A stretch of DNA of 64,000 nt from Schmidtea polychroa (Eukaryota): positions 39,184,001 to 39,248,000 of the forward strand of contig CM097885.1 of the NCBI GenBank assembly GCA_044892525.1, given 5' to 3'. A model generated the notes under the pieces. It ran no database searches. It had not been told where the DNA came from and saw nothing but the letters and a program-made list of their open reading frames with translations. Both the position numbers and the translations under genes were made by a program. Shown here piece by piece: positions 2 through 37,122 of the stretch (its first letter is position 1; each line of letters begins with the position of its first letter).

Positions 2-3000
2 GGATTATGCGGATACTATCGCAAATTTATCAAAAATTATGCAGGAATTGCAAAACCAATCCAGGAATTAGTAAAGAAGGACATTTCGTTCATTTGGGGG
101 AAGGAACAACAAGAGGCGTTCGAAACGCTGAGAGATAAACTAATCGAAGCACCTATCCTCGTACACCCAGATTTTAAGAAGCCATTTCTATTGGCAACGG
201 ATGCAAGCGGGTACGCGGCAGGCGCGATTCTGGGACAATTAGATGATGAAGGAAAAGAGAGAGTAATCGGGTATTACAGTCGAACATTCAAAAAGCACGA
301 AAAGAACTATTCGGTAACAGAACGGGAAGCATTGGCTATAATACAAGCTATCAAACACTTCCGATACTTACTATGGGGACATGAGATATGTATAACCACA
401 GATCATCAACCATTAGTGTGGTTAGGGCAACATAAAGAAGCGTCCAGTAGACTGATGAGATGGGCCATGCAATTGCAAGAATACTCCCCATTTATAAAAT
501 TCAAAGCGGGAAGAGCAAATGCCAACGCCGATTGTATGTCAAGATTTATTTTCCCAGATTTGGTGGATTCAGAAATGCAACGCATATGCTTAATAGTAGC
601 GGAAGATTTGGATTTCTGTCAACTGCGAAAGGACCAACAAGAGGACGCGGAATTAAAACAAATTATCGATTATGTAAAAACCGGAAAGACAGATGTATAT
701 GCGAAAGACCAAAAATTAAAAGAACATATGGATAAACACCGACACCGATATATTATAGAGAAAGATTGGTTGCTGATAATGGATGGGGAAAAACGATTAA
801 TGTGTATACCGGAAAACCGACGAAAAGAGTTACTAACGCAATATCACGATGGGAGATTGGGAGGACATATGTCATCGAAAAAGACGTTAGCAAGAATGAA
901 ACAGAAATATTTTTGGCCTACGTTAACTGAAGATGTAACCGAATGGGTAAAAAATTGTCTAACTTGTGCAACCAGGAAGAATACTGGATCGAAATGGAAA
1001 GCACCTTTAACGCCAATGCCAGTACCAATAGAACCAATGACAATGATATCCATGGACGTAGTTGGTCCACTACCAGAGTCAGATAAAGGAAACGTTTACA
1101 TTCTAGTGATCACAGACTTTCTTACGAAATTCCCAGAAGCATTCGCGATGCCAGACCAAAAAGCTAAAACAATCGCAAAAATTTTGGTAGAAGAGATATG
1201 TTGCCGATATGGAACACCAAAACAAATCTTAACCGATCAGGGAACTAATTTTATGAGTGAGATAATGAGCGAAGTAACAAATTACTTCAAAATAGCAAAA
1301 CTAAGAACATCTCCATACCACCCTCAAACCAATGGGATGACGGAAAGATTTAATGGAACACTTATACAAATGTTATCAAACTACGTCGACCGTCACCAAC
1401 GAGATTGGGACGAATATATAAACCTATGTCTTATGGCATACAGAATGTCGATTCACGCATCAACGAAAATGAGCCCATTCAAATTAATGTACGGAAGAGA
1501 GTGTAATATGCCAATGGACCTGGAATACCAACCACCGATATCGCAGTATATGGAGATCGATGATTATGTTACGAAATTCAAGGAAAGAATGCAAGAGATT
1601 TGGGAAACTGCGGGATTAAATATCAAGTTCTACCAGGAAAGTTATAAAGATTTACACGATCGAAAGAAAAACGTGAAGCAACATACGTTTCAAACAGGTG
1701 ATTGGGTAATGATAGAAACCCCGGAATTAATTCCAGGAACCACAAAAAAGTTACAACGCAACGGAAAAGGACCATATGAGATCTTATTCGTAGGCGAAAC
1801 TAATGTAAGAGTGAAATTGGTAAATAACCCCTTTACCAGGCCAATATACGTAAACGTGGCACGATGCAAATCAATTCCAAAAACAGCCACTAGTCAACCA
1901 GAAGGCCGTACATTAACCACACGTTCGCAAACCTACAGAATGAACATGATGCAACAACTCGCAGAACCGATCACTGGACGATTAGGTATCCAACCATCAG
2001 AAGCGGAAAAGATTGTAAAAGAGGTAAAAATTAAAATACCTGGATGGGCAAAAGATCGATTAGATTTCGAAATATTAGGAGGATTATTGACGATGATCGA
2101 GAACTATGCAAATAGAGAAAGGACACACCCATTATTGCGAGTAGTCAAAAGCCAATGGCCAATATTATTTACCATAACAGATCATTACGGAGACACACCA
2201 TTACACAAACTCATGAAAGTAGGTAACAACGAGCAAATACTAGAAACAATAGAAGCATTTCACGACTGCAAGCGATCAACAGAACAAACAAACAACCAAG
2301 GTTACACACCATTAATGATAGCCGCAAACAGAGGCAAAACAAAAGACGTTATAACCGCATTACTCGATACTGGATCGAAAATAACTACACAAGACCACGA
2401 GCGGAAAAACGCTCTATATCATGCTATCGAAGGGAGAAGTACCGAGGCGTTCACGTCATTGATGGAACTACTATCATATGAGGACAATCGAGAAGTCGGA
2501 AACATGTATGATGGATTATTAACAGCGATCAAAGAGAAACTGACAACAATTACCGGAATATTAATTACATGGAGAAATCCAATTCAAAACGATTATATGA
2601 TCAACGTAAACGAAGCGTTCACGAGAGGAGAGAACACGCTGATGAGAGAAGCTATGAAAGGACATCATTTATTCGAAATCCCGAATCAATTACTAGAACG
2701 AGGGATAAAATTCACAAATCACAAAGATGAACAGTTAACAAAAAAGCGAATCGACACATTCGAAAAATCACTATTCCAATTTACTAACCAAGTACGAAAT
2801 AAATATTGGGAAACGGTAAGTGTGTTATATATGATGGACACAATGAATAACATCCGCGAGAATTACCTGGATATTATCCAAATACTTACAGCAGAGGAAC
2901 GAATCAATAATCCAAACGGAAAGAAAACGAAAATAAGGTATGAGAAATCCAGGGAATCAAAGTCAACAACGAACCAAACGGTCACAAACAACGTCATCGA

Positions 3001-5158
3001 AACCAAATCAATGAGTATAGATCAAGAGGCAATAATACGCAAAGCAAAAGAAGTGTTCTTTGAGGAAATGCTAGAGCTGCCAGACGAAATAATATTGTCC
3101 AAAATAATAAAAGCCGTACACACATACGCAAGAGATCAAACCACGGGTTTAGATATCGGGAAAATCAAAACCTTCTTGCCTCGAGCATTTACGATGGTAA
3201 CAAAGGATTCCAGAACACCTCTACAACAAGCAATACTAGCTGCAAAAGAGAATAGAGCAATAACGATCATGAGCATCCTTGGGGAGATGGGCGAGGAAAC
3301 CAACACGAAAAATGAACAAGGTGAAACCGCCATGATGTATGCAGCTATAACGAAAATACACCCAAAAACACTCCACATCCTACATCAATCAGGATCGAAA
3401 CTAGACGAAAGGTCCAATGAAGGAAATTCCACCTTGGACTGGGCAACCATACAGCCAAACTTAGAAATGATCAGATTTATTTGCAAAAATGCGACAAAGG
3501 AAGAAGTTGAAAACATGTGCAAAGACACATCTCAGTTTCAATGGAATACGATACGGAAAAATCTAGAAGCAATGAAATTATTATTAACCTGGAGAGTACC
3601 ACAAAATAATAAATATGCGATAAATGTAAACGAATTCTACGAAAACGGAGAAAATGCGATGGTAAAGAACACCCTAACTAAGGGGGGGACGCCTAAAATT
3701 ATTTTAATAGTATTAAATAGAGAAGACCTAAAATTCACGCAAAATCAGAACGAGCAACAACGAATTGGGAAACATCGTCGCATGCAATTGAGAGAGTTAG
3801 TTAAAGAATGGAATAGAAAGAGACATGCTGCAACGGGTAGAAAAGAGTTTGAATTCGAAGCAAAATTAGCAAGAAACAGAGTGCTAACAGCATATCGCAG
3901 ATTATTGAACGATATAAATGTCGAGGACGACATTTTAAACGACAGCGGGGGAGATAAAAACGATGACAATGACGGAAAAGGCCGAAAGGAGGATAAAGGG
4001 AAAAGAGAACCGGAAGAGGATAAACCGGAAAACAAGGATTTGGATACGAAAAGAGAGGGAAACAGGCCGGGAACCAAGACCAAAGAGGAGGAAAAATCGA
4101 ATAATGGAAAACAGAGGGTATGCCTACCTTTCACTAACAAAGAAATAGAGACAAATATGATATTAATGATAATTATGCTTACCATGATAGAGTTAGTAAC
4201 AGCTCAGGGAGGGACGAGAACGATAAAAGAAACCAAAGAAGCGGAGAATCAAGATAGCAAAGAGGATGAACTAAAGCAAGAAAAGAAAAAGCAAGCACAA
4301 GAGCAGCAGTGGGATTTAAAGGAAGAATGGGACTTAAAGGAAAGGTGCATACTAGGAAGATGCATGTCTAGAGCGTATCAGAAACTAGTACTGATAAATG
4401 AGGACACAGAACCAATAACAGAAGTAAGAATACAAGAAGCATACCGAAATCGAGACGGGAAGAGAATAACGAACGTTAAAGGAAAAGAGGTACACCTAGG
4501 AAAAGGTGGTGAAGTAGTAATAACGCAGCTCCAACCTAGAAGAGAGCACAAAGTCTGTATTTCAAGATTAGGACCAGGTGAGAGATGCCATCAATATGTG
4601 ACGCAGCAGCAGCCGCCGAAAGAATACACGGTTTGTATCTGGAGGAATGAATCAAAAAGAGAATGCCGACGATACCCAGGGAAAAGAGGAAAGAAAAGAA
4701 AAAACCACGACGAAAAGAACGAAGGAGGAAAGCACAAGAAAACCGGCGAGGAAGCTCAGGACAACTATGTTTCGGAGGAAGAGATGGAAAAAATACAAAA
4801 GATGGCAAAGGATGGTATGAACGAGGAAATAGCAAGAATACGGGAAATGATGAAAGGAAATGGCAAAAGAGGAAACGAGAAAGGTATAGAAGCGATATCA
4901 ACATTAACGAACAAGGAGAAACCAGAGAATATAAGCGTGAAGCAGATGATGTGGATCAGTGGGATAATAATAACAGGGGCCTTCCTAATCATAACGGGGG
5001 GAACAATAAAAATAATCAAAGATAAACGACATCGCGGAGAACTAGAGATGACCCGAATCAGAAATTTCCAACATCGAGTGAAACGACCAAGTGATATCAA
5101 ACAAGAACAGTGGGTGGAGGCCTGGAACGCTCAGCGCCCTCCAAACTCACGTATATAG
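2..5158 (+). CDS. pol: Pol polyprotein (5'-partial): RT thumb/connection, RNase H, integrase, ankyrin modules, membrane-anchored tail
   Basis: Frame is open from nt 2 (GLCGYYRKFIKNYAGIAKP...PFLLATDAS). RNase H: TDAS...EREALAI...TDHQPL. Integrase HHCC: HDGRLGGH...CLTC. Integrase core: MDVVGP...TDQGTNF...ERFN. GPF/Y-like: GDWVMI...GPYEI. No stop until 5158. Confidence 0.96.
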   Translation, partial: GLCGYYRKFIKNYAGIAKPIQELVKKDISFIWGKEQQEAFETLRDKLIEAPILVHPDFKKPFLLATDASGYAAGAILGQLDDEGKERVIGYYSRTFKKHEKNYSVTEREALAIIQAIKHFRYLLWGHEICITTDHQPLVWLGQHKEASSRLMRWAMQLQEYSPFIKFKAGRANANADCMSRFIFPDLVDSEMQRICLIVAEDLDFCQLRKDQQEDAELKQIIDYVKTGKTDVYAKDQKLKEHMDKHRHRYIIEKDWLLIMDGEKRLMCIPENRRKELLTQYHDGRLGGHMSSKKTLARMKQKYFWPTLTEDVTEWVKNCLTCATRKNTGSKWKAPLTPMPVPIEPMTMISMDVVGPLPESDKGNVYILVITDFLTKFPEAFAMPDQKAKTIAKILVEEICCRYGTPKQILTDQGTNFMSEIMSEVTNYFKIAKLRTSPYHPQTNGMTERFNGTLIQMLSNYVDRHQRDWDEYINLCLMAYRMSIHASTKMSPFKLMYGRECNMPMDLEYQPPISQYMEIDDYVTKFKERMQEIWETAGLNIKFYQESYKDLHDRKKNVKQHTFQTGDWVMIETPELIPGTTKKLQRNGKGPYEILFVGETNVRVKLVNNPFTRPIYVNVARCKSIPKTATSQPEGRTLTTRSQTYRMNMMQQLAEPITGRLGIQPSEAEKIVKEVKIKIPGWAKDRLDFEILGGLLTMIENYANRERTHPLLRVVKSQWPILFTITDHYGDTPLHKLMKVGNNEQILETIEAFHDCKRSTEQTNNQGYTPLMIAANRGKTKDVITALLDTGSKITTQDHERKNALYHAIEGRSTEAFTSLMELLSYEDNREVGNMYDGLLTAIKEKLTTITGILITWRNPIQNDYMINVNEAFTRGENTLMREAMKGHHLFEIPNQLLERGIKFTNHKDEQLTKKRIDTFEKSLFQFTNQVRNKYWETVSVLYMMDTMNNIRENYLDIIQILTAEERINNPNGKKTKIRYEKSRESKSTTNQTVTNNVIETKSMSIDQEAIIRKAKEVFFEEMLELPDEIILSKIIKAVHTYARDQTTGLDIGKIKTFLPRAFTMVTKDSRTPLQQAILAAKENRAITIMSILGEMGEETNTKNEQGETAMMYAAITKIHPKTLHILHQSGSKLDERSNEGNSTLDWATIQPNLEMIRFICKNATKEEVENMCKDTSQFQWNTIRKNLEAMKLLLTWRVPQNNKYAINVNEFYENGENAMVKNTLTKGGTPKIILIVLNREDLKFTQNQNEQQRIGKHRRMQLRELVKEWNRKRHAATGRKEFEFEAKLARNRVLTAYRRLLNDINVEDDILNDSGGDKNDDNDGKGRKEDKGKREPEEDKPENKDLDTKREGNRPGTKTKEEEKSNNGKQRVCLPFTNKEIETNMILMIIMLTMIELVTAQGGTRTIKETKEAENQDSKEDELKQEKKKQAQEQQWDLKEEWDLKERCILGRCMSRAYQKLVLINEDTEPITEVRIQEAYRNRDGKRITNVKGKEVHLGKGGEVVITQLQPRREHKVCISRLGPGERCHQYVTQQQPPKEYTVCIWRNESKRECRRYPGKRGKKRKNHDEKNEGGKHKKTGEEAQDNYVSEEEMEKIQKMAKDGMNEEIARIREMMKGNGKRGNEKGIEAISTLTNKEKPENISVKQMMWISGIIITGAFLIITGGTIKIIKDKRHRGELEMTRIRNFQHRVKRPSDIKQEQWVEAWNAQRPPNSRI
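2170..3770 (+). other. Two duplicated ankyrin-repeat modules within the pol ORF
   Basis: Ankyrin motifs GDTPLHKL, GYTPLMIAA, KNALYHAI, RTPLQQAI, GETAMMYAA, GNSTLDWA. Each module ends in a shared cap: TWRNPIQNDYMINVNE...GEN and TWRVPQNNKYAINVNE...GEN. Confidence 0.85.
4157..5158 (+). other. Env-like/type I membrane segment at the pol C-terminus
   Basis: In-frame signal-peptide-like MILMIIMLTMIELVTAQ at 4157, a Cys-containing ectodomain, TM-like MMWISGIIITGAFLIITGGTIKII (about 4946-5017) and a basic cytoplasmic tail. Confidence 0.6.
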
Positions 5159-5318: not shown

Positions 5319-5665
5319 ATGGATCAAGGAAATAACGAAATGAACCACAATACAGTAACTGAAGAATTATGGAAGCAACAATGTGCCGTATTAGCACAAT
5401 TAGTGTCCAATTTGCAAGAACAAGGATTGACGATGCACAGAGTATGAATAGAGGATTTAGTTATTTGAAGATAATTGAAGACCAGAGGTTGAAAATCGAA
5501 CAAATGCAAAGAGAGATAGAGAGGATAACCCAATATAGCCGTAGACAGGAAATTGAACTAAACAGAATGATGGAGGAAGCAGAACAGACAGAAATAGAAG
5601 ACTGGTCGGAATGGTTAATGAATAGAGAGGAGAGCGGACACGAAGCCGACTCTTCCGAACCCTAA
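5319..5665 (+). CDS. Small coiled-coil/acidic cargo ORF, possibly frameshifted or stop-start coupled
   Basis: A 42-aa ORF at 5319-5447 (MDQGNNEM...LAQLVSNLQEQG) ends in a TGA that overlaps ATG 5444 (ATGA). That ATG is in the 5369-5665 frame (EDQRLKIEQMQREIER...). Confidence 0.5.
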
Positions 5666-5750
5666 ACCAAACCTAGCTTAAAATGTAAATAATTGTAAAT
5701 AAAATATCGAACCTGTATCGATAAGAACTATTTGTACATATAATTATAGA

Positions 5751-7139
5751 ATGGATAAACGACAAAGAGAAGAGTTCAGAGAGATTGTCGAGCAAGTCCG
5801 AAAATCTACAACGATCAGAATACACAAACATGTTATGTGCGGAATATGTGAAAAGTTGTTAAAGGAACCTCACCAAACGCAATGTGGATGCAGAGTATGT
5901 AAAGAATGTATCAGTGAAGCAATAAAGAATAGACCACAGAGGTGCCCGGTGTGTAAAGAGACACTAATATCGAGTTTAGAAGACACTAACGAGGATAAAG
6001 CCGCAGTGAAAGACATGTTAAACACCAACCTGGGATGCAAAAATGCCCCATGCGAATGGAAAGGAGTAATATGGAAGGTAGTACAACATATGGGAGAATG
6101 TATGTACAGAATTGGCCAGTGTGAAAGGTGCCATAAAACCATTCGAGCAAGCGAAGAAAAAGAGCATCAAAGGCAGTGTGAGGAGAGATTAGAAAGATGT
6201 GAACACTGTGGAGAAATAGATACGTGGAAAAATCTCACCCTCAAACATCACAATGTCCAAGAGGAGAGAGTATGTGCAGAGTTCAGTGGGGAATGCCCAA
6301 ACGGATGTAACCAAGGGGAAATAATGAAGGTGGCACAGCATCTAAGGGAATGTGAAAAGAAAAGAATGACATGCGTACTAGGCAAATGGGGTTGTCAGAA
6401 ACTACTACACCGAGGGGAGTTACCACATCATTTAGTAGAAAATGCTTCAACCCACGCAGAAATGTGGTCGACTGCGTTACAAGAAAGCGAGGAGAAAGTA
6501 AAACAAATGGAGATAGAGATAGCATCGTTGAAAGTATTAGTCAAAGAACTACTAGAAGAAAGGGAAGCGTTCGAAGAAGCCCGAGCAAACATAAAGATGC
6601 AAATAAACCGAATAGAAATCAGTAATAATCAGGCCAAGGAGCTACATCAGAAAATACGGGAAATAAATCTAAATGAGATAACCCCAACAGCACCCTACAT
6701 ATGGAAGATTACGGGAGTAAAGGAAAGAATACGAAAAGCAAAAACCGGAGAAGAGACAAGAATAACAAGTCCTGCATTCCATTCTTGGAAAAATGGGTAC
6801 AAAATGAAAATGAAGATATATCCCAACGGGGACGGAACCGGATTAGACACACACTTTTCGATTTTCTTTCTGTTATGTAAAGGAGAATACGACGAAATAA
6901 TAGAGTGGCCGTTCCAGGCGAAAATCGATATTGCACTAATGAATGACCGAAACATCCACGAACAAAGCTTCAAGACAACTGGAAACCAAATGTGTTACCA
7001 GAGACCTACGGAAGAAGAAGGATCAGCAACAGGAGCACCTACGTTCATCCTACAACAAAAAGTAGAAGATATGGCAAGAAAGGGCACGGTGTATATCAAG
7101 ATGACCGTAAGGAAAGAGGAGAAGGGCAGAACGGAGTAA
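5751..7139 (+). CDS. TRAF: Intronless full-length TRAF-family protein (RING, TRAF zinc fingers, coiled coil, MATH), TRAF2/3-like
   Basis: RING CGIC...QTQCGCRVCKEC...CPVC; linker DKAAVKDM...CKNAPCEWKG; TRAF-type zinc fingers; MATH domain YIWKI...SPAF...GYKMKMKIYPNGDGTGLDTHFSIFFLLCKGEYDEIIEWPF. Confidence 0.95.
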   Translation: MDKRQREEFREIVEQVRKSTTIRIHKHVMCGICEKLLKEPHQTQCGCRVCKECISEAIKNRPQRCPVCKETLISSLEDTNEDKAAVKDMLNTNLGCKNAPCEWKGVIWKVVQHMGECMYRIGQCERCHKTIRASEEKEHQRQCEERLERCEHCGEIDTWKNLTLKHHNVQEERVCAEFSGECPNGCNQGEIMKVAQHLRECEKKRMTCVLGKWGCQKLLHRGELPHHLVENASTHAEMWSTALQESEEKVKQMEIEIASLKVLVKELLEEREAFEEARANIKMQINRIEISNNQAKELHQKIREINLNEITPTAPYIWKITGVKERIRKAKTGEETRITSPAFHSWKNGYKMKMKIYPNGDGTGLDTHFSIFFLLCKGEYDEIIEWPFQAKIDIALMNDRNIHEQSFKTTGNQMCYQRPTEEEGSATGAPTFILQQKVEDMARKGTVYIKMTVRKEEKGRTE

Positions 7140-7333
7140 ACGATCGAATAATGTTGTATATAATAATCTGTATATATCGGTGTATATAACCAATAAAATA
7201 TTATATAATAATAGTATGAAAAACCCTAAATACGTAAACCCAAAAATGATGCGAAAATTTCCAAAGAAACAGCAAATAATGAATAAATTCCTTTTTCATA
7301 ATAAAAAGCTTAATCGATGTCTATGATTTAGAG

Positions 7334-8389
7334 ATGACACAAGAGAAACTAACCGAAACTGCGATAGTCCCAACCAATGTCAACAAGACACAAATTCCCC
7401 GAGAACATAACAAAAAATGGAACAAAGTAATGTTCCAACTAACTAATCTCACCCGAAATCACATCGAAGAAGCTAGAGAGGATGAGAATAGTCAATACCA
7501 ATGGTTAATACACAACTTAAGAGCGGAAGCAGAAGCATGCAAAAGAGCATCAAAATGGGCGTCACTAGAAAATACCCGCCAAGAAGCGCACAGCCACTAC
7601 TTAAAGCAGCTAGTGCAGGAAGCGAGAAAGAGACTTACCGATGAGAACACCAAGCGCGAAGCGGAAAAGCAAATAGAAGGAAGGAAAATGATGCACTTAG
7701 TGGCAGAAGCGAGAAAATGGAAAAGACAAAGCAATGAAATGAAAAAAGAGATGAAAGAATTGCCCATGAGACTCGGATATGAGAGCGAACAGGGTAAATG
7801 GGAGGAAAATTTAATAATAAAGGAAGAACTGAAACGGTTGAAAAAGGTCGCCGCCCGAAGCCAAACATGGCAGATGAAGGCTATGGAGTTTGAACGACAT
7901 TTGGCAATAAAATGCGACATAAGAGAGCACGAGAATGCCGCAATGGAAGAGATGATAACCCAGCAAGCAGGACGGGTTGTGGAATTAGTAAATCAGGTCG
8001 AAGAGATGAAAAGAGACCTTAATGGATTACAAGGATCGTTAGAACAAAGAAACATGGTCCTGGCGGGAAAAAACAGAAAATTAGAAAACGAGAGGAAAAT
8101 GTATACCGAAAATATCAAAAACTTGGAAATAGAAATTGAAAAATGGAAGGGCGACGAGAAAATCAAGGCCTTAGATAGACAAGTAGAGGCGAAAGACGAA
8201 GAGACAAGGTATCTCACTTATCTGCTCGACGAAGAGCTGAATATCACTCGAGCTCTAAGAGACGAAGTTAATGAATTGAGAGCTCAAATCCCCCAATATT
8301 ACCTACCCTATGACCCTATTGCGATACAGTTGCATCCAGCGGTCGATAGTGATGAAGGTTATGTGGGACAGGAGGAAACCTTCGTATAA
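7334..8389 (+). CDS. Uncharacterised coiled-coil cargo protein (351 aa)
   Basis: Long intact ORF with the same A-rich composition as pol; E/K/R heptad-rich; no recognisable domain. Confidence 0.75.
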   Translation: MTQEKLTETAIVPTNVNKTQIPREHNKKWNKVMFQLTNLTRNHIEEAREDENSQYQWLIHNLRAEAEACKRASKWASLENTRQEAHSHYLKQLVQEARKRLTDENTKREAEKQIEGRKMMHLVAEARKWKRQSNEMKKEMKELPMRLGYESEQGKWEENLIIKEELKRLKKVAARSQTWQMKAMEFERHLAIKCDIREHENAAMEEMITQQAGRVVELVNQVEEMKRDLNGLQGSLEQRNMVLAGKNRKLENERKMYTENIKNLEIEIEKWKGDEKIKALDRQVEAKDEETRYLTYLLDEELNITRALRDEVNELRAQIPQYYLPYDPIAIQLHPAVDSDEGYVGQEETFV

Positions 8390-8502: not shown

Positions 8503-9264
8503 ATGCATAAGTATAAGTCGCACTATAGCGCACCATTAACTGTACATATTACAGATATGAAAATCGAGGAAATAATAGAAATTACGAGCGACGTGGAAGA
8601 GGGAGAGATTGAGGCAGAAACAACAGAAACACAAACGTTAAAGGCCAAGTTACGGGAAGAGAGGGACGAAAACGAGAGACTAATAAACAAATATATAGAA
8701 GACCGAAAAATGATTAAAATACTAAAGAAGGAGTGCGAAGCGTTAGGAGAAATAAAGAGAGAAGCTGAAGAGAAGAATGAATGGTTGCAAGAACAACGAA
8801 CACGAGGAAGAAACTGGGAAAAGATTGCAGAGGAACTATGGCAAGAGAGGGCAAGCTTCAAGGCAGAAGAAGTAATCCAAGATTATTGGAAAACAGAGGC
8901 GAAAGAACACCAAATAACTATAAATAAATTAAATCGACAATTGGAGGAAAAACAACGAGAAAGTGAGGAAATGAAGAAATGGATTCGCAAGTACCAAGAG
9001 ATCGAGAGAAAACAACAACAACAACAACAACGAAACCTTTCGCAGGAAAACGAACAAGATTTCCTACAAATCGAACTAAAAAGGAATCTCGACAAAAAAC
9101 GGGAAGAAATTAAGAGACTGAAAAAGGAGATAAGGCACATGAAAAGGGAGGCCCGTGAAAAGAACAGACAGTTGGAAATGCTGCCCGAGTTAAGACACAG
9201 AGTCATTAAAGCGGAATCCACCCTGATGAGAATCGCCGAAAATAACCCAAACCAGAATCATTAA
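8503..9264 (+). CDS. Uncharacterised coiled-coil cargo protein (likely start ATG 8557)
   Basis: Intact 253-aa ORF with an acidic N-terminus, then heptads and a polyQ tract. ATG 8557 follows the shared TGTACATAT...AG motif. Confidence 0.75.
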   Translation: MHKYKSHYSAPLTVHITDMKIEEIIEITSDVEEGEIEAETTETQTLKAKLREERDENERLINKYIEDRKMIKILKKECEALGEIKREAEEKNEWLQEQRTRGRNWEKIAEELWQERASFKAEEVIQDYWKTEAKEHQITINKLNRQLEEKQRESEEMKKWIRKYQEIERKQQQQQQRNLSQENEQDFLQIELKRNLDKKREEIKRLKKEIRHMKREAREKNRQLEMLPELRHRVIKAESTLMRIAENNPNQNH

Positions 9265-9305: not shown

Positions 9306-9965
9306 ATGTATAATAGTATCATGCGAGGCGAGATGATGATAACAATGACGGTATTGATGATTCTGACGGAGAACAAACAAGTAAACGCCCAACCGAAAAT
9401 CGTGCGAGATTACCGAAATCAAAATCAAGAACCTAAACGAGAATCCGGCCAATGCACATACCCTATGACAGTAAAAATCCATATCATCCAAACCCTTCAA
9501 TCAACCCGTTCACACATCAACAACATCCAAACAATGTGTAAAAAGAATCCCATTTGTAAAATGATAAACAAACAAATCCTCGAACAAATCCAACAATTCG
9601 ACCAGCTAGAACAACAAATGCAACAAGAGAATTTTGAAAATCTTGTAGAAAAGCCAAAAACACCTCCCGAAATCAATGACACCCATTATCTCATATATGT
9701 GGTGATCGCAGAAACCCTCCTCCTATGTCTACCAATACTCATGAAGATTTACGAAGTTAGAAATAAATGTAGAACCCCGACAGCAATAAGAGTAACCTCG
9801 AACAGAAATCCTCAAGAAGTGCCACTGACAAATCTTAACCCAACCCCATTCCGACCTCGAATCCCGAGTAACCAACCAATCCAGCCGAATTCTTACAGTC
9901 AGACCTATCTCAACATCAATACCCAAACCAACCAACAACCGCCGGCAGAAGCATCAAATGGTTAA
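9306..9965 (+). CDS. Small predicted type I membrane cargo protein
   Basis: Hydrophobic N-terminus MMITMTVLMILTENKQVNAQ, short helical ectodomain with two Cys, TM-like YLIYVVIAETLLLCLPILM, and a Pro/Asn/Gln-rich tail. Confidence 0.7.
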   Translation: MYNSIMRGEMMITMTVLMILTENKQVNAQPKIVRDYRNQNQEPKRESGQCTYPMTVKIHIIQTLQSTRSHINNIQTMCKKNPICKMINKQILEQIQQFDQLEQQMQQENFENLVEKPKTPPEINDTHYLIYVVIAETLLLCLPILMKIYEVRNKCRTPTAIRVTSNRNPQEVPLTNLNPTPFRPRIPSNQPIQPNSYSQTYLNINTQTNQQPPAEASNG

Positions 9966-10583
9966 CAGTTCATAAACTCTAACTCAAACATTGGTGATAT
10001 CATATGTAGAAACTTTTATTGTATATACAAACTATCACCTTAAGTGATACTTGCTTGGTCTTGATTTGACCTATATCTTAGAATAAAATTGTTTTATTAT
10101 TGTAATATAATTGTTTCGATATATCCTTTTTATGAATGCATGAAGTAAGATAACTATGCAATTGCGGGACGCAATTTTGATGGGTCCCCGAGTGATTTGT
10201 TGGGCTGAATCGAAGGGTAGTTGAGAAATTAGGGCAAACTTAACTAAAATAAAATAAAAAATAAAAACAAATAAATTGACAAACAAAATAGAATAAAACA
10301 TAAGAAAAACAATAATTAGAAAATAGGAATTAAAACAAAAAATATAAAGATGAGAAAAAATTAAAATAGGACAATAGAATGGCGGAAAACAACGTAAAAT
10401 ATAGTAAATAATAAGAAAATTAAGGAAAATAAATAAAAACATAATTTTAATAAAGAAAGTAAGAAGAAATAACTCAAAAACAAGGAAAATAAATTAAATT
10501 AATAAAATTAAGCGGTACTCAATTCTAATTGGTCCGCGCAAACAAAAAATTAATATATAAGCAGGCATTAAAAACATAACAAT

Positions 10584-10659
10584 TACTGTTAATCAACCAC
10601 CTCAATAGGTAAGCGAAATTTAAACAAAAATACTGTTAATCAACCACCTCAATAGGTAA
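10584..10659 (+). repeat. 29-bp direct repeat pair in the LTR (U3 enhancer-like)
   Basis: TACTGTTAATCAACCACCTCAATAGGTAA at 10584 and 10631; also present in the second LTR copy. Confidence 0.8.
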
Positions 10660-12633
10660 ATCTATTCTACGACAGAACAGAACTCCAGCAACTAACGCAC
10701 GATAACTCACGAGGACAATCCCAAGATTCAAGAGATTTTTACAGAACTAGACGATATTCGAGCATTAACTGATTCGACATAGTACCCTTTTCGACTCAGC
10801 CCATACTTGTATCAATCATTCAGTAAGGATTTTTGATTGCTTATTTTGAATTTTTAAGTAATGCGTATAGTTTAATAATATTTTTAATTTAAAAAATGGT
10901 TTTTCTTTTCGTTTGATTTTCGAATGCTTTACTTAAATTAATAATTTGCTTAATAATAAATGATTTGCTCGTTAAGAATTATTGATCTTTTATGAATTAA
11001 TTTGTATGAATTATTGGAGACTATTCAATTTTGCGAGAAACGTGGCGTTGAGATACTCTATGTCATGGTGTGAGGTGCCTTCGGGAGCTCCACCGGTGGA
11101 CATAGGGTATTTCAATCACGCAGCTAGATTGGGCCGAAATGTGAGGGCTTCTTCACGGGTCCAATTGCTGAAGGTGCGACTAAAAGCTATAGGTAAATGG
11201 TGGCAGAAAATTGATAGTCATGTAGTGATTGAAAACAAAGATATATAATAAAGGAATCGGAGAGTTTGGATGTATTCGCGCAGTGATTGAGGGTGTCGCA
11301 CTATCGTCTTCAAATATCGTTTTTGCTAAACCTAAAAATCTCTCTATCATCAATGTAGGTTGTGCGTCAAAAATTGTTCAAACCTTAATGAGGCTATCTG
11401 TGACATATCTTTGATGTTCATACCTTTCACTCAGAATCTGTTCCGACCAATTTTAGCCTATGACCTTTTGAACTATTATTCCGTTCACCTAAAAGTTCTC
11501 TTAAAGACATCGTTGCAAGGAAGCTCAAAGTAGATTGCTTCAGATAATTATTGGAATTATTCCAAATGACTGTTTACGGATAAATTGTAGAACTACGTAA
11601 AATAATTTATTATAGATAATTGTTAGAACTTCATAAAACGAGTTTGTTCCAATTAAAATTTTGAATTACATAAAATAATTTACTTCAATTAATTTTTTTT
11701 TGAATTATATAAAAATATTTACCTATAATCAATTATCATAATTACACGAACTATTGGCATCAAATAATTTAAAATGAAAAATGCAACCAATTCGAACCAA
11801 GAAAATATATTTCTTCAAGTTAACCGATAATCTTGTTAAATACAAAATTCCAGTATTACATGAGGTTGGCAATCCAGCAGAGATAGGAAAAAATCCTCCA
11901 GCACTTAGAGAGTAGATTGATAAACTAGGCTTGAGGAATTAGAGACGAAAAATCCACCCTTGGAGCAAGCAGTATCCAACATTTGCAATATAGATAATTT
12001 TAATTTTTCCAATAATCCGGTGAGAATTAGTAAATCATCACCATATGCCGTAGAATTGTGAGCGAATACGCGGTGGATAAAATTCTGAGAGAATGCCATC
12101 ATGCAAACATTCAACGCCTGCATTGGTAGTATAATTAAGCGGGTGAAAGCGCACCTGGCATGCGTCACCAGTTGCAGACTTACCTAATAGCCAAGTACAG
12201 TAGACAAAGTCACACACGCATCTACTCATGAAAAATTAGATCGAACATGCCAATTAAACTACCGACAGCTATCAGATTTCACCGCTTCGGATTAAGAGTC
12301 AATCACTGGGCTGACATTACCTTATCTACCCAGCAGGTATGATCGACTACTAGCTCACACTGATACCGTGCTCAGTTGTTATAAAGACACTAACATTTAA
12401 TGATAAACTCGATCATAATTATGAGTATTCTCTCGTTATTATCTTAGCATGAATGGCACCGAAATTATTTCATTTTTTGACATAGTTATCATTAATATTA
12501 GTATCGAATATTGTTAAATAAATATTATGTAAACCAGGTAAAACACATACGTGAGTAATTAAAGAAAATGAATAAACAATTAAAAATTTAAATAACCTTC
12601 CGTTTATCCTGTAGGAACTAATCAACAGGCATT

Positions 12634-13757
12634 ATGGACCCCTTTTCCATAGATAGTCACTCGACCCCAATATATGATACACTCAGTAAAAGCACTCGTA
12701 CGGGGGGAGAAGTCGACAATTTAAATCGATTCTCGGTAAACGTGAAATAATGACTCCAAGCGGATTAAATAAATAATCAGTTTCATCGACATAGAATTTC
12801 TCTCACAAACAGTAATATCTTCCTTTTCCTTGTGCGAAATCTGGGTTGATTGATTTATCTTCTTATAATTAAAGCCCCGAAAGGGTACGAGAATCCATCG
12901 CGTAGTAGAACTTGTCCTGACTGGTAAACCCTTATTTTTGTCTATGATCAGTACAGTATGAATGTAGTCAGGTGGTGACGCTCCCGCTGATTTAATTATT
13001 TTCATTTTCTTTTTCACAGTCGCTCAAAATGTTGCCAAATTCCAAGCCCGTTCTTCGACCTTGTTTTTCTTGCTCCGACAAGAATTCAATTATCAAAGAG
13101 CTCCAGGCCCAAATTGGCAAGCACAAAAGAAGGATAGATGAGTTAGAGGGGACATGGTTTAGTCCCACCCAGATGAAGGAGGCTCAGAAGAAGCTGCACC
13201 GAAGCGAGCACTGTAGAGACGCGTTGATTTCCGAGAGTCGGGCGCAGAGGAGCCTGATAAAAGAGCAGTCGGAGGCGCTGCACAAATTGTACGTCCAGGC
13301 CGCAACTACAAGGAAGATCGCGAAGATCCCGATTAACGAAGCCAGTAACCTTTTCCCAGCACATCATGATATCTCTGGAAAGTCCTGCCATGGGTGCGTA
13401 GAGACCGAGCTCTCACCTAAAGGACCAGAAATCATCTTTACCGGAACCAGTAAAGTGCTACCTGCGATAGCATCCACCTCAGCAGCACCCTCGACCAACC
13501 AAACAGCATCGAAGCCAAAGCGTCGACAATTATCGAGAGCAGAACGAAAGAAAAAACAGCGGGAACGCATAACCGCCAAACAGAACCAGCAATCGTCGGA
13601 TCATCCAATCAAAGTCATCAACCCCCCTGCAGCAATCGATTTAGCACCAGTGATCTCAGGGCGAATCATCTCCGCCGCTGGTGTTACCTGGGAGGAAAAC
13701 GCCTCTGAGTTTTTCGATTTGGAAGATCTATTGGCAGACTCGGAGTGGGAGAAATGA
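12634..13757 (+). CDS. LTR-encoded spliced gene (exons 12634-12735 and 13020-13757; 279 aa): CxxC, coiled coil, basic NLS-like segment, acidic tail
   Basis: 34-codon exon MDPFSID...NRFS ends at a GT donor (12736). A polypyrimidine TTTTCATTTTCTTTTTCACAG acceptor at 13019 joins it in frame (SLK) to the 242-aa ORF. Contains KPKRRQLSRAERKKKQRER and ends FFDLEDLLADSEWEK. Confidence 0.72.
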
Positions 13758-13891
13758 GAACTTCCCCGTAAAAAGTCTTCGTTCTCTGAATTGACCTGAA
13801 CATTGTCTGATAACATTTTACCTTGTCTCTTTTCCCGTTGTCGTGAACTTTATTGTATAGGTGTTAGATATATTTGTGTGATAATCTTAAT

Positions 13892-13897
13892 AATAAA
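13892..13897 (+). promoter_or_regulatory. Candidate polyadenylation signal in the LTR
   Basis: AATAAA 135 nt after the LTR ORF stop, followed by a GT/T-rich tract. Confidence 0.5.
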
Positions 13898-16800
13898 CCA
13901 TTTTTGTCTGCATACGTTCTTTTTGTGTTCATCTTAAGACAGTTGAGTTGAAATTGGTAAATGGTATTGAGAGTCATAAAATTATGAGGAGCATTAGTCA
14001 GTTGGTAAACTCAGCTAGAAATATTGCGATGGGGCGACGGAATGAGTAGACGTAAGTCCTTCTATCGGCAGTCAGGGTTGGGAAGTCGAGGCCTCAGTAA
14101 GGAGTAGTCCGAAGGAGCTGGCTCACCTGCTTACTGGCGTCTCGCCGGCATAGCACAGTTCCAACGTGAAGCAATTCACGGGTGCTATGTTGGAGTGTAA
14201 GTTATGTACGGGTCCCGCTCGGCGATGACCAAATAAATGACGGGCGAAATCGAGGTGGGCATTCATCCTCTAGACTAAAGCTGCACTAGAAAGGGGTCAT
14301 CCGAGTAGTGTACCCGCAACAACTGTAAAAATAAAAATTGTGGAACGTTCTGTGCTGTTCCGGGCTTTATTTTATTCGTAGGATTAACCTTTGAATATTA
14401 TTACAAGCGCTAAATTTTTGGGCGATTATACTAAAAATGTTTGGGGTATTTATATTAGATTTTTAAGCCAGATGTTATTTTAAAATAAATTATATTAATT
14501 TCTAGTGTTAAGAATTGTATTTCAAGTATGATCTTAAGAACAAATTATATTATTTTACCTAAAGAAATATTATTTTATTTTTATTTTCAGTTAATTCAAG
14601 AATACTTGAATTATTCTGACTAAAATTTTTCAGCTGTTTATTTATTAAAGAAATTTTACCTTTAATTAAAATTTATTGTTATTAATTTAAAATATTAAAT
14701 TAAAAATTATTAAAATATTTTCCCTTGTATAAAATTATATTGTAATCATTTATTAAAAAGTTAACTAATAAAATACTCAGTCTATTAAATATATACACCC
14801 GATAAAATATACATCATTAATCAGACAGTATTATACATAAATAATCAGACAGAAATTAATCAGAATAATAATAAAGGATAAAATATGCACAGATTGTTAG
14901 CTATTTCGAGGATAATGTTTGATCAATAATATTTACACAAATTAAATCGTTCAAGAATAATGTTTTGTTGAATTAACTTGAATTGATTGGATTGTTTCTG
15001 GATTGAATTGGGTTGCATGGAATTGGGTTGTTGATTGTTGGGAAATTAGATTGTCTATTTATCTACGCTCTTCGGTGTATACATTGACTCGGTATCTCTT
15101 GGGCCCTGTCCTATAATACCGGTTGAGGTTAAATGTGGTGATGTGCCTACCTTCATCATCCAACATACTTAATCTCCTTGAGTAACTCTGAGTTGTTATT
15201 GTCGTTCCCGACCAATATAAAACAATCTTTCATCACTATTACAATATATTACAAAACTACAGTAAACTTTATTGTCAAGTCACTGAAACATTATATTAAT
15301 AATACAGGATACTAATAATCAAAGGAATAGAAATTAGAACCCGGAACTTTAATAATATAAATAAGTATTATTGTCGACAAAGGTTCAAATATGCACTCCT
15401 CATCTGAGGCATTCATAACATTTGCATAGTATATTACTTCACTTTTTGGTGGTACTTCTTTGACAGATTCGTGTTTCATTATAATTTGAAATGAATTTAA
15501 AGTTTCAGTGACAGACGAGACCCATTAACTATTGACTGACTCATTTAATTTGTCTGTTTTCAGAAATCTATATGAAATCTATTGATCCTGTTAGCTTCCA
15601 CTGGCGTCATGAGAATCGCGGCGGGTTGGTCGAGAGTTTGAGTGGTCTGTGACTTGACAGCTCTGTGGCAACTGCTTGTTTGTCAAGGATGTGAGATTTA
15701 GAGACTGAAGGTTTATCTGTTTGATAATCTTGTTTTAATTAATTGTCGGGGTATTTTGAAACTTTAATTGAAAGTTTTTTACAGAAATTAAAACAACATT
15801 TCGATTTTCCTGGGTGTTCTTTACTATTGCTAATTTAATTTGATTTAATTAACAAATTAGGAGTGATGACACTAAAGCTTTTAGGGAAATTTTGCAAGTA
15901 GTTGCTGATATATCAATGATAGGTTAATTTGGTGTTGCTTTTTACTTGTTTTACCCGATTGCAAATAAAGTTCAAGTTATTTCAAAAGGTAATGATAGAC
16001 AATATTTATGAGAATCATTGGCTGATGGGTCTAAAAGTTAAGTATAATAGTTATAAACCAATTGCTAGAGGTTCTTAAGTCATTTTAAACATAAAAGAAG
16101 ATCAAATTAAATATCTGAATGAAAAGATCCAATCATCAACCTAGAATTATATTCTATTGACTAAAAGTATGCAACAAAAGCATCGGAAAGTTCTCCATTG
16201 ATGCAAATAATAAAAGAGAAAATTTATTTTCTAACAAAATTACTAAACTTCATACAATTCAAATTGAAAGAAATTAACGATGTTAAGATTAAGTTTCACA
16301 ATGCAAAATAAAGAAATAACCAAATACCAGATGATGAAACTACAGTAACAAAAGAGAAGGAAAGTGAAGAAACCGAAAGTAAATCGAAACTTGAATATTT
16401 GGATGATGACGATAAAAATATAAAGATTAAAAGGAAAAGAAAAGATGCTGGTGTAGAAGAGTTAAATAAAAATAACCCGATTTAGACAATAATCCAAAAT
16501 CGAAAAATATTAATTAATTTAATTATGTTTAAAAAGCCAAGAAAAAGCCTATTATCATTAAGTTTTAAGAAAAAATCCTTCATTGAAATTATGATAAAAT
16601 TATGTATGTCGAAAATTCAAATTTTTGTGTCAATTTGAATTCTTCTGTAAATCTAATCATATTTCTTGACCAGCCATTTCAACCTTATACCAAACTTTCA
16701 ACAGCTTTAGTTCACCTGATTGTAAAATTAAGTTTTGTAATCAGAATTCAAAATCTTATTTAATGGAGAGTTAGGTGAATAGAGAAAAATAAGTACATGC

Positions 16801-20902: not shown

Positions 20903-23900
20903 TGTGTGTGTGTTATTTGATCAAGTGTATGTTTGGGCATTTATTATTTTTAATTTAGTACTCCCGTAATTATATGATTTCAACAATGAAAAATCGAATA
21001 TACAATCCTCTTAAATGTGAATTTTATGATCCAACACAACGGCTTATTAATTACTCAAGTCCTACTATTTATAGAGATGTACAAATGTGTTACGATTATT
21101 ATTAACATTAAGGGATTTTCAATTTGTTTGAGCTCTGACATTTTTATATATTCTGTATTTGATTTCTCGAGAGTATACTTTCTCAGTTCCTTTCTCTTTA
21201 TTTAAGTAATATCTCAATAAATGTCGAATCAATATGCCAATTTTCCGACTCCTGATCTGAAAATGATTCGTACCTATGTAGTAATATGATGTGTTTCTAT
21301 CAGATAAAACCCTTAGCGTAGAAAAATGTGGAGCCAGGAAGTAGGCCACTGGTTACCGTGGTCATCGTAAAATAGATCAATTTGAGTCGGTTTAAAATTG
21401 CTTTAATAAAATGGCAACATTTAAAAACCAATGGCATCCAAAGTTATTCATTTTTAATATGTGGTTAGTAATTTTTAACAAATTAATTTTTTTTGTTTCC
21501 ATGAGTTTTACATTATTAACATTGATATTCTTCTATTTCTTCTTCATTTTATTATAATAATAAATGGCTTACATAGTTATTTATTTGAATTATATTTTTA
21601 TAAATGATTCTGCTATATCAAAGTTTATAATAATAATAATAATAATTATTATTATTGCTATTGTTTTTGCCGTTGTATAATTGATTATTAAAATAAAAAG
21701 AAACAATCAGACTTACTTCAATGTAATTCTTCTCCATGTATCTGTAAGCATATTCATCGGCATCTTCAATGAAAAAATTAAAATTGTTAATTTCTATAAT
21801 GCCTCCGACATGTATATCTGAAGCTTGGTAATATTTGGGCAATTCTGTACTGTATCTTTCTTGGCCGGGTTTTTTAATTTTACTTCGTTCGAGAAATTTC
21901 CCCCCAAGGAATCCTGCAAATTAATCGTCATTTATTTAATTTATAACTTTAAACCTGAATTTTTTAGTACACTTTCAAACACCACAACGCTGTCATCGGC
22001 CAAAAAGAACGAAATAATAAATCGCCTGTCTTTATCTAATACTTTCTCAGTAACAAGTCTAGCTTTAAATCTCAATACGTGGGACTCTAGGCCTTTGCGA
22101 TCTTTCTCCATAAATTTAATGAAATCTCGTTTTGGAGGTTGAGGCATTAAGCCATGACAATTACCAAGAGAATCTTCTTCCGATCCCCAACCATTAAATG
22201 GCGGTTCATGACGAATTATTGGTTCTCCGCGATAATTTTCAGTAGCAATAGGAATAAAATTCGCTAGAAGGAAATATTTATTTTAAAGAATATTTTAATA
22301 AAAAAATAAAAAATTAAGTAAAATATATAATGAAAAATATTAATAAACTATATTTAACCAACAAAGGTGATGAAAAGAATCATTAATTTTACTTTGTTTT
22401 TCAATGTAAATTTTTATCCGATTCAGAAGTTCTTTAATTATAATAATTTTCTTTTAAACTTTATTGTTAAAGTCACTACTTAGAAACTAATTTTCAATAA
22501 TAGGTGAGACTTCAAATACTGATACCGGCCTTTCCTTTACGTTTACAAATCCTCCTCTTATTAATACTGATGAATCTTCATTTGAGAGACGATGTCAATC
22601 AATACATAAGGGGTCACTGGAAGTCGTTAATTCAAACGTTGTCATATTTGTCGAAACAATTTTATTTAAATAAACAGAAATTTATTACTGAAAGATTGAT
22701 CTGCTAAAATCTGTACAATGAGAAAAATATCTTGTGATTACATTCAGCACCGAATTCTACACAAATCTTTGAAATTAAAAAAAAATTTTATATTTTTATA
22801 TTTTTACAATTAAGCATTCACATAAAAGTATATTATTATAACTTATACTGTTTTTGTTCATTTAGGCTATTAGGTCATTTTTGTTCAAAATAACATCAAA
22901 TTTGTTAGCCGCAATGGTCGTTTGCTGCAGTTTACGTGTTGAAAGTTTTAGTATAATGATTCCAGCATTTTAAGTGTTAGAACTTCGTGGATTTTTGGGA
23001 AACGTTTTGCAAATAGACTGTGCACCTCCAGTCTTAGACTCACATTCTATATGTTTAGAAGGCCCCAAAAAATCTTTGTGCCTAGTGCCCCATTTTCTGC
23101 AAATGTACCCTAGGTTAAAAATAGAATAATAAATTGAAAATCTGAAATTTTATTTCCAATACAGCTTAGTAACAAATATCCTTGTCCTGATCAAATTTTG
23201 AAAGTATTCATTTGACATAAAATTAGTGCAGAAAATCATCTTTAGATAAATTTTAGATAATTATTTGGATAGTCTTCTTATATACACTTGTCCGTTTGCA
23301 AGTATCAAGTTTTTTTGCAAACTACTCATCATAAGATATTCATTTTGGTGATAAGGGTTGGTTTGCCAGTTGTAGTAGTTATGACAAATTAAAAGTAGTA
23401 GGAAAACTCCAAATAATTCATAATTCGAATCCAACGAACGAGAGTTGGGGTTCGAAATGGGAAAAATATAAAGTTATTCAGAATAAACGATTGAGTTTAA
23501 AGATCCCATAAAAGATTGTATAGAATTGAACAATAATTTACAAATAAATAGAAGTAGCTAAAATATTTAATTTTAAGTAATAAGTTTTTATTGACAATTC
23601 AATGTTTAATGATTTGGAGGAATAATTTGATCCGCTTCAGGATCGTATGATTCAATTAATATTTTATAATTTATATTCTATCATAAAATAAAGCCACTAA
23701 CTCATTCCATATTTGTAATTATAATATTCTTTAGTGAACTGATCCATATCTGTTATAACGAATTTTCGCCCAAAAACATTAACGCAAGCTCCAATTTGAA
23801 GGTCTTCATCAGTATAGAATTCAACTTTTGTTTCTCCAGTCTTTCATAAATTCAATATCCAAAAAGAATAAAGTCAATATTTTTACTTTTAAATTATCAA

Positions 23901-35900: not shown

Positions 35901-37122
35901 GCACAAAAGAAGGATAGATGAGTTAGAGGGGACATGGTTTAGTCCCACCCAGATGAAGGAGGCTCAGAAGAAGCTGCACCGAAGCGAGCACTGTAGAGAC
36001 GCGTTGATTTCCGAGAGTCGGGCGCAGAGGAGCCTGATAAAAGAGCAGTCGGAGGCGCTGCACAAATTGTACGTCCAGGCCGCAACTACAAGGAAGATCG
36101 CGAAGATCCCGATTAACGAAGCCAGTAACCTTTTCCCAGCACATCATGATATCTCTGGCGGGTCTTCTTCTCCAGTCGGAAAGTCCTGCCATGGGTGCGT
36201 AGAGACCGAGCTCTCACCTAAAGGACCAGAAATCATCTTTACCGGAACCAGTAAAGTGCTACCTGCGATAGCATCCACCTCAGCAGCACCCTCGACCAAC
36301 CAAACAGCATCGAAGCCAAAGCGTCGACAATTATCGAGAGCAGAACGAAAGAAAAAACAGCGGGAACGCATAACCGCCAAACAGAACCAGCAATCGTCGG
36401 ATCATCCAATCAAAGTCATCAACCCCCCTGCAGCAATCGATTTAGCACCAGTGATCTCAAGGCGAATCATCTCCGCCGCTGGTGTTACCTGGGAGGAAAA
36501 CGCCTCTGAGTTTTTCGATTTGGAAGATCTATTGGCAGACTCGGAGTGGGAGAAATGAGAACTTCCCCGTAAAAAGTCTTCGTTCTCTGAATTGACCTGA
36601 ACATTGTCTGATAACATTTTACCTTGTCTCTTTTCCCGTTGTCGTGAACTTTATTGTATAGGTGTTAGATATATTTGTGTGATAATCTTAATAATAAACC
36701 ATTTTTGTCTGCATACGTTCTTTTTGTGTTCATCTTAAGACAGTTGAGTTGAAATTGGTAAATGGTATTGAGAGTCATAAAATTATGAGGAGCATTAGTC
36801 AGTTGGTAAACTCAGCTAGAAATATTGCGATGGGGCGACGGAATGAGTAGACGTAAGTCCTTCTATCGGCAGTCAGGGTTGGGAAGTCGAGGCCTCAGTA
36901 AGGAGTAGTCCGAAGGAGCTGGCTCACCTGCTTACTGGCGTCTCGCCGGCATAGCACAGTTCCAACGTGAAGCAATTCACGGGTGCTATGTTGGAGTGTA
37001 AGTTATGTACGGGTCCCGCTCGGCGATGACCAAATAAATGACGGGCGAAATCGAGGTGGGCATTCATCCTCTAGACTAAAGCTGCACTAGAAAGGGGTCA
37101 TCCGAGTAGTGTACCCGCAACA
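32976..37122 (+). mobile_element. Solo LTR (4147 bp) of the giant Gypsy family
   Basis: TGTTGGG...CCCGCAACA with a perfect 4-bp TSD TACT (32972-32975 and 37123-37126); near-identical to 10198-14321. Confidence 0.93.
35414..36558 (+). CDS. Second copy of the LTR-encoded spliced gene (exons 35414-35515 and 35800-36558; 286 aa)
   Basis: Same splice sites and an intact frame; differs from copy 1 by an in-frame 21-bp indel (GSSSPVG) and G-to-R near the C-terminus. Confidence 0.72.

Follow-up and report, generated by a model that had tools for sequence, protein, structure and literature searches.

Giant gypsy-like LTR elements named Burro or GYPSM1 have been described in planarians (Jurka 2007; Grohme 2018, as reviewed in PMC6431247). 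In the sections of that review considered here, they are about 30 kb long with long LTRs, encode a polyprotein of about 4,700 aa whose Gag has three CCHC knuckles, place an in-frame env between gag and pol, follow the order PR-RT-RH-IN and carry ankyrin repeats together with MATH/TRAF, BIR and BCL2-like sequences (PMC6431247). The ankyrin cargo of Burro polyproteins is already published there, and the same sections name the repeats without their position, a doubling, a border motif or a second membrane protein. An env between gag and pol is also the arrangement of GAG-ENV-POL errantiviruses of the HSV/gB type in Platyhelminthes, in the portion of PMC13524379 available to us. The main text of that paper has no occurrence of ankyrin, Burro or fibronectin, and Burro ankyrins are not discussed in the available portions of PMC8532177, PMC11410931, PMC13524379 and PMC7968707. 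Levels of Burro RNA increase in smedwi-2(RNAi) animals (PMC8532177). Burro elements are known for their odd cargo. Our literature search found no paper in which the Burro ankyrins are given a position or analysed, none that connects them with the planarian nidovirus PSCNV, and none that gives the doubling, the series of families with two, one or no units, the candidate protease code or the PSCNV match reported below; the doubling may already be visible in figures and supplements of Jurka 2007 and Grohme 2018.

Ankyrin domains are also carried by viruses. The domain of PSCNV is closest to host RHD-ANK proteins, is predicted to lie in one protein with a TM segment and has been proposed as an IkB mimic (PMC6211748, in part). 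Polydnavirus Ank proteins and vankyrins are encoded by separate genes, have an IkB-like ankyrin domain without regulatory sites (PMC3359993, in part) and bind Rel factors, as has been demonstrated (PMC3359993, PMC3757122, both in part).

Here we analysed a stretch of 64,000 nucleotides of the Schmidtea polychroa genome (contig CM097885.1), called the window. The first-pass annotation of this window had described two ankyrin modules fused in frame behind an integrase and had read them either as a targeting module of the integrase or as a protease-released inhibitor of NF-kB. We report that the modules are genuine, a selected ankyrin cargo that was doubled long ago and is carried by an element of a known kind: the units are joined in frame to Pol, are similar to ankyrin repeats, arose by an old duplication, are under purifying selection and are absent from the sister family B. 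The reading which we prefer is that the two units are accessory cargo, made in frame with the Pol of an envelope-carrying Burro-type gypsy element; that the element's own protease would cut them from the integrase; that they would remain on the cytosolic face of a membrane through the signal-like segment which follows them; and that, held there, they would bind and retain a host signalling protein, of which a Rel-homology transcription factor would be the most likely, in the manner of an IkB decoy. Taken as a whole, this reading stands about even in our judgement. The candidate protease code, together with the occurrence of families with two, one and no units in a single genome, opens both the processing and the function of the cargo to direct tests in a model animal.

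Architecture of the element

The element is a young, multicopy gypsy LTR element of the Burro type with the order gag-env-PR-RT-RH-IN; its layout is that of Burro, and the assignment, made by layout from comparison with the Burro descriptions, is to the Burro-1 to -4 group as a whole. It is 30,301 bp (30.3 kb) long, has LTRs of 4.1 kb and a 4-bp target-site duplication, and its 5′ and 3′ LTRs differ by 0 substitutions and 21 gap columns. The whole frame has 4,732 codons, close to the 4,800-5,100 aa taken as typical of a Burro polyprotein, and extends upstream of the window, where it encodes Gag with zinc knuckles, a fusion protein of the mononegavirus type, the protease and RT. Pfam matches along the frame were obtained for Retrotrans_gag, zf-CCHC, Monjiviricetes_fusion (E 4.6e-70), RVP, RVT_1, RNase H and rve, with env placed between gag and PR and followed by RT-RH-IN. 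The size, the long LTRs, the Gag with three CCHC, the order of domains, the ankyrin repeats and the TRAF/MATH cargo are shared with the published elements described above. In the window element MATH is present in a downstream ORF only, and there are two ankyrin units. A sister family of the same genome, family D, fits the Burro1 description better: its frame of 4,791 codons includes MATH and is followed by TRAF and BIR-RING. It has one unit. The features located in the window are collected in Table 1.

Table 1. Features of the Burro-type element in the window (positions in nucleotides of the window)
Feature	Position	Strand	Basis or remark
gag-env-pol frame, 3′ part (1,718 aa)	2..5158	+	one stop-free frame; the window starts inside it
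RNase H domain	95..484	+	Pfam RT_RNaseH and RT_RNaseH_2
Integrase: H2C2 zinc domain, rve core, GPY motif (nt 1769), C-terminal part	806..1876	+	Pfam and motif
Candidate cleavage site, aa 644-652, between integrase and unit 1	1931..1957	+	recurrence of the motif at domain borders
Ankyrin unit 1, 313 aa	1982..2920	+	N-terminal helices, ankyrin repeats, C-terminal helical part
TWR...GEN motif, unit 1	2567..2635	+	lengthened loop that leads to another ankyrin repeat
Ankyrin unit 2, 308 aa	3023..3946	+	AlphaFold model, five ankyrin-like helix pairs, long C-terminal helical hairpin
TWR...GEN motif, unit 2	3587..3655	+	loop between fourth and fifth helix pair
Charged linker (17 K/R, 18 D/E of 66 aa)	3938..4135	+	weakly constrained, dN/dS 0.26
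Internal signal-like hydrophobic segment	4157..4210	+	mean hydropathy 1.78; small-residue -3/-1 pattern at its end
Second membrane protein: Cys-containing ectodomain, TM helix 4946-5023, short tail	4211..5158	+	sequence features
Accessory TRAF-like ORF (RING and MATH)	5703..7139	+	Pfam; 31% identical to family D TRAF
3′ LTR (TG...CA)	10198..14321	+	5′ partner upstream of the window, L022:4021-8165

The primer-binding site which follows the 5′ LTR (L022:8166-8200) is similar to a tRNA-Pro type; no clear polypurine tract was seen before the 3′ LTR, and the Rfam and tRNA scans gave no matches. A solo LTR of the same family is present at window 32976-37122, is 98.6% identical to the 3′ LTR and has its own 4-bp target-site duplication. 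The LTRs contain an ORF of 253-260 aa which matches no Pfam family (window 12996-13757 and 35776-36558; L022:6819-7601), and a similar peptide is encoded at window 54877-55338.

Extent and fold of the ankyrin units

The fusion and the duplication that had been described at first sight are both borne out. One stop-free frame holds RNase H, the integrase and three stretches matched by Pfam Ank_2 (E 1.2e-17), and the two units are 25% identical across 250 columns (E 1e-17), each with the TWR...INVNE...GEN motif. At the DNA level no significant similarity between unit 1 and unit 2 is left, and the duplication is therefore old. The size of the modules had to be corrected from about 190 aa to about 305-313 aa, the borders (about 305 aa) being set by a three-way alignment which includes the single unit of family D.

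An ankyrin fold is indicated by Ank_2 in three of three units (both window units and that of family D) and by an AlphaFold model of unit 2 (pLDDT 85.9, pTM 0.81), in which N-terminal helices are followed by five ankyrin-like helix pairs and a long hairpin; the alignment behind this model had 31 rows, 22 from elements and 9 from generic ankyrin proteins. Single-sequence AlphaFold runs of both units gave a pLDDT of 34 and were set aside, and the assignment of unit 1 is from sequence evidence. The matches of the unit 2 model among solved structures are ankyrin proteins, with Z up to 15.8.

The TWR...GEN stretch had been called a cap. It is common to both units as was stated, but it aligns with an ordinary inter-repeat loop in seven of nine unrelated ankyrin proteins, is about 8 residues longer than that loop and is followed by a further helix pair, the fifth ankyrin repeat; it is a lengthened loop, and its reading as a new domain was rejected. 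An F-box-like stretch noticed by eye at the start of unit 2 was also dropped, being absent from the other units and without a Pfam match.

Copies in the genome and selection

Unit 1 is matched at no less than 91% by at least 150 copies (the best 150 of 982 candidates), two of which have a stop inside the match, and frames of at least 4,700 codons hold 63 of the best 150 matches. The GPY motif and both TWR motifs stand in one open frame in the window copy and in 19 of 19 other copies tested, with neither a stop nor a junction between integrase and ankyrins. When 59 other copies were compared with the window copy, 57 covered aa 590-1312, 44 of the 57 had no indel or stop there, and no stop allele was seen in the linker between integrase and ankyrins in any of the 59.

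Both ankyrin units are under purifying selection. From single-base codon variants common to at least three of the 59 copies, dN/dS lay between 0.02 and 0.10 for each of the six sub-regions of the units; the spacer gave 0.49, the charged linker 0.26, and RNase H and integrase 0.01. The copies had been selected as best matches either to unit 1 or to 1900-3900, a choice that biases toward conservation; unit 2, on which it bears less, gives the same values. Long retroelement frames can carry hitch-hiking sequence, and on this general ground the units might be a captured passenger without function. The difference in dN/dS between units and spacer already contradicts such an origin, and so does the diverged unit kept at the same place in family D, where linker and unit are 98-100% kept with no stop in 115 of 115 scored copies. 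We regard a functionless passenger as hardly credible.

Sister families with two, one and no units

The window family has two units, family D one and family B none. The single unit of family D is found at the position that matches the units of the window family. Family B has a frame of 3,334 codons which is 49% identical over RNase H and integrase; it keeps env, and only about 40 aa separate its integrase from a signal-like segment, after which come an ectodomain and a TM helix. Ankyrin matches are absent from three of three loci. One broken copy of a further family has the same order as family B. As family B joins integrase and membrane protein without ankyrins, the ankyrin units are an insert between these two parts.

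Between the window family and family D (L106) the identity is 81% in the integrase and 88% in RNase H, and falls to 28-29% in the ankyrin units and 31% in TRAF. These values suggest that the cargo evolves fast or else predates the shared Pol. Among the top-scoring candidates there was no fourth family with ankyrins, and a BIR search of the genome returned only frames of the family D type.

The first half of the family D unit (L106:1999-2916) is nearer to unit 1 (47 vs 39 of 142), and its second half is nearer to unit 2 (44 of 156, vs 27 of 152 for unit 1). Such half-wise affinities may reflect a division of labour after the duplication, or a deletion between twins.

Candidate protease sites

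An integrase must be free of a membrane segment to reach the chromosome, and the integrase here would have to be freed from the downstream signal-like segment, which supports a release. A short motif was found nine times in the upstream 3,013 aa of the window family against 2.3 expected (0 of 500 shuffles), and the upstream half of family D gave the same count and the same expectation, nine and 2.3 (0 of 500 shuffles); the motif was written after reading the window family with the family D half unseen, and one residue class was widened after the post-integrase site of family D had been seen. Downstream it is not enriched (2 vs 1.3 expected in the window family and 3 vs 1.1 in family D), and family B has no match in either half. 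Several of its sites lie at borders, namely after the zinc knuckles, on either side of the protease (ahead of it, and between it and RT) and where RNase H meets integrase, and six of ten positions checked are aligned between the window family and family D. From this recurrence at domain borders, the motif is probably the site of the element's own protease.

A weight matrix was built from 14 of the 18 upstream matches, leaving out two inside the protease, one before the start region and one within a domain. It places aa 644-652, between integrase and unit 1, at the top of the 1,718 aa with 14.7 bits, the next site having 4.4 bits, and none of 200 shuffles attained this score. With a matrix trained on family D alone the same site is top again (14.1 bits, 0 of 100 shuffles), and only one of 2,000 shuffles of the linker reaches its score. 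The core is unchanged in 55 of 59 copies, one of them with a gap just after it, and shows a conservative change in the other four. Some sites score less well: the one at the border of RNase H and integrase is weak, and the post-integrase site of family D, although the best between its integrase and signal-like segment, is not significant (6.1 bits, 175 of 2,000) and is not among the ten best sites under a matrix from the window family alone.

On these scores, cleavage between integrase and ankyrins at aa 644-652 appears likely. No comparable site was found from there to the signal-like segment, including the stretch between the units (best 3.9 bits). With the strongest site directly after the integrase and none comparable later, the cut would leave the units on the membrane side.

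Integration targeting

Chromovirus integrases are tethered by a chromodomain which follows the GPF/Y motif, and the first-pass annotation had placed the modules at just this position. The placement was right: the units come directly after the GPY-containing end of the integrase, and no Chromo family was matched in the window frame at E<=0.1, unit 2 modelling instead as an ankyrin stack. A tethering module that replaces the chromodomain would agree with this position, with the fusion that is open in the 44 of 57 fully covered copies and with the weak protease site of family D. Such a tether is difficult to reconcile with the strong candidate site between integrase and unit 1, with units which run on into a membrane segment, with their absence from family B and with an identity between families as low as 28% in the units when the integrase keeps 81%. 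The insertions also give no sign of it. The 147 placed copies are compatible with an even spread over four large contigs (chi-square p 0.50; KS p 0.73), and their distribution is no different from that of 64 family B copies (p 0.61), a test which speaks only to bias at the megabase scale. A targeting role is unlikely for the ankyrin units, and replacement of the chromodomain by them is improbable.

The integrase tails of all three families end in short arginine-containing motifs, TRSQ or RYxLRS (window 1913-1930; L106, L064). These we take to recall nucleosome-binding motifs of other viruses, and they could be the real tether.

Second membrane protein and accessory reading frames

Past the ankyrins the frame continues into a signal-like segment, an ectodomain and a TM helix. 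This second membrane protein has no Pfam family above the cut-off, and its ectodomain gave no usable Atlas match. A signal-peptidase cut may follow the signal-like segment, as judged by eye. Retention of the units at the membrane after such a cut has, in our estimate, an equal chance of holding or failing. Signal sequences inside the polyprotein may be used to anchor cytosolic cargo by its tail.

A structural use of the released units can be pictured as well, in which they form a matrix-like scaffold under the membrane and, during assembly and budding, connect the particle with the second surface protein or with the cytoskeleton. The units immediately precede the signal-like segment that belongs to the second membrane protein. 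Sharing one frame with Gag and Env, they would be produced 1:1 with them, and the membrane adaptors ankyrin-1/2 and Kidins220/ARMS are among their top solved-structure matches. These matches are, however, generic and near tied, and family B, which has no ankyrins, still has both env and the second membrane protein, so that the units are dispensable for the layout; we consider a scaffold rather unlikely.

The element is accompanied by TRAF and RING ORFs. Because the other cargo (TRAF, RING, and BIR-RING in family D) is related to signalling and apoptosis, a host-signalling target of the released, membrane-held units is somewhat favoured over other targets. The same RING and TRAF cargo would also suit a role of the units as substrate adaptor for ubiquitin ligation, together with this cargo or with a host cullin ligase. 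Poxvirus ANK-PRANC proteins and host ASB proteins are the families for comparison, with an F-box-like PRANC or a SOCS box at the C-terminus. The conserved helical hairpin after the repeats and an alignment with ASB7 over residues 3-294 (Z 14.6) point in this direction, but the ASB7 match has an rmsd of 5.3 and is tied with many others, and no F-box, PRANC or SOCS family was found by Pfam in the three whole units at E<=5. A ligase adaptor is accordingly a poor candidate in our view.

Further accessory ORFs are present at window 5363-5665, 7283-8389, 8503-9264 and 9306-9965 and at L022:8473-8976; three of them are charged and coiled-coil-looking, one has signal-like and TM-like segments and one is an upstream RING ORF. 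A weakly Bcl-2-like stretch (L021:960-9998) lies ahead of the signal-like segment of env, parallel to the ankyrin units ahead of the second such segment. Burro-type elements are characterised by BCL2-like and ubiquitin-like domains before env. The Bcl-2 match has E 0.015 in family B, the same stretch compares pairwise with the window family at E 8e-4, and no solved Bcl-2 structure was found to match it. A ubiquitin-like match before env in the window family reached only E 0.46.

Possible host target

The proposal of a protease-released NF-kB inhibitor fared differently in its two parts: release is supported by the conserved candidate site, and the NF-kB part is a hypothesis, with a planarian virus as top viral fold match and no IkB-specific similarity among solved structures. 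When the unit 2 model was searched with Foldseek against a viral fold library, a fragment of the PSCNV polyprotein ranked first among at least 500 matches (E 9.9e-6, TM 0.53, 242 columns, 22% identity), by a small margin (next match E 2.7e-5; next TM values 0.49 and 0.48). That a virus of planarians tops this list is suggestive, a likeness drawn from one Foldseek rank of a model whose alignment included the 9 generic ankyrin proteins. Solved structures returned generic ankyrin proteins for unit 2, with Bcl-3 only at rank 35, and no IkB was among 50 VIA rows (Z 13.3-15.8, near tied).

Like the Burro units, the PSCNV domain is an ankyrin domain of a giant polyprotein in a planarian host, in a protein predicted to have a TM segment; unlike the Burro element, PSCNV is an RNA virus, and its domain, listed at aa 11394-11555, is a single copy of three divergent repeats in about 100 aa (PMC6211748, in part). 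The polydnavirus proteins resemble the units as ankyrin-only viral accessory proteins beside other immune-modulating cargo (PMC3359993, PMC3757122, both in part). They differ from the Burro units, which form part of a polyprotein and have additional helices at the N-terminus and a hairpin at the C-terminus. From these likenesses and the model, an IkB-like action of the ankyrin units is plausible, and Rel factors as their target are a tentative choice.

A bolder possibility is that the Burro units and the PSCNV domain form one family of membrane-held IkB mimics, which a retroelement and an RNA virus with a host in common would owe either to exchange or to capture from the same RHD-ANK host gene, with the doubled version released by the element's protease and internal signal sequences serving as tail anchors for host-control cargo. 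We regard this as speculative and unlikely. If the link were true, two unrelated planarian viruses would use the same kind of decoy; the shared mimics would show where the poorly defined NF-kB system of planarians has its real target, and their binding partner would identify a flatworm antiviral transcription factor which homology searches have not settled.

On the host side, seven divergent RHD factors and no clear NF-kB are given for S. mediterranea in the available portion of PMC13563047, and planarian NF-kB was not detected by BLAST according to that of PMC4484250. A search of the genome with the RHD_DNA_bind profile gave 0 candidates, a result which is uninformative. The RHD_dimer profile found one locus, whose exons we take to be NFAT5-like, and the TIG profile found two, presumably an exocyst subunit and a COE factor. 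Among 36 loci screened with the Burro profile, the best host ankyrin exon (L083:1492-1857) scored 49 bits and the others 27 or less; it looks like part of a generic ankyrin gene, presumably FANK1-like, and not of an RHD-ANK gene.

Broader searches also returned ordinary ankyrin proteins. The first protein search gave 357 matches, only generic ankyrin, with no integrase family among the best 120 of the 357; further searches gave 9 matches, and 81 matches with no integrase or RHD family among the 81; the best 150 of 145,764 representatives were long multi-ankyrin proteins; and the Atlas search with unit 2 returned generic ankyrin clusters. In viral contigs, 59 pattern matches led to 0 confirmed loci. 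These protein and viral-contig searches are weak for divergent, unannotated polyproteins, and absence of such units elsewhere does not follow from them.

Large clustered ankyrin arrays with a period of 144 nt lie near contig ends of the genome (G000:C4 86-93 Mb, C1 263-265 Mb, C3 8.4-8.5 Mb), with no similarity to the Burro units in the loci screened. In the window itself, a host exon at 23821-24297 on the minus strand presumably belongs to an EFHC/DM10 gene.
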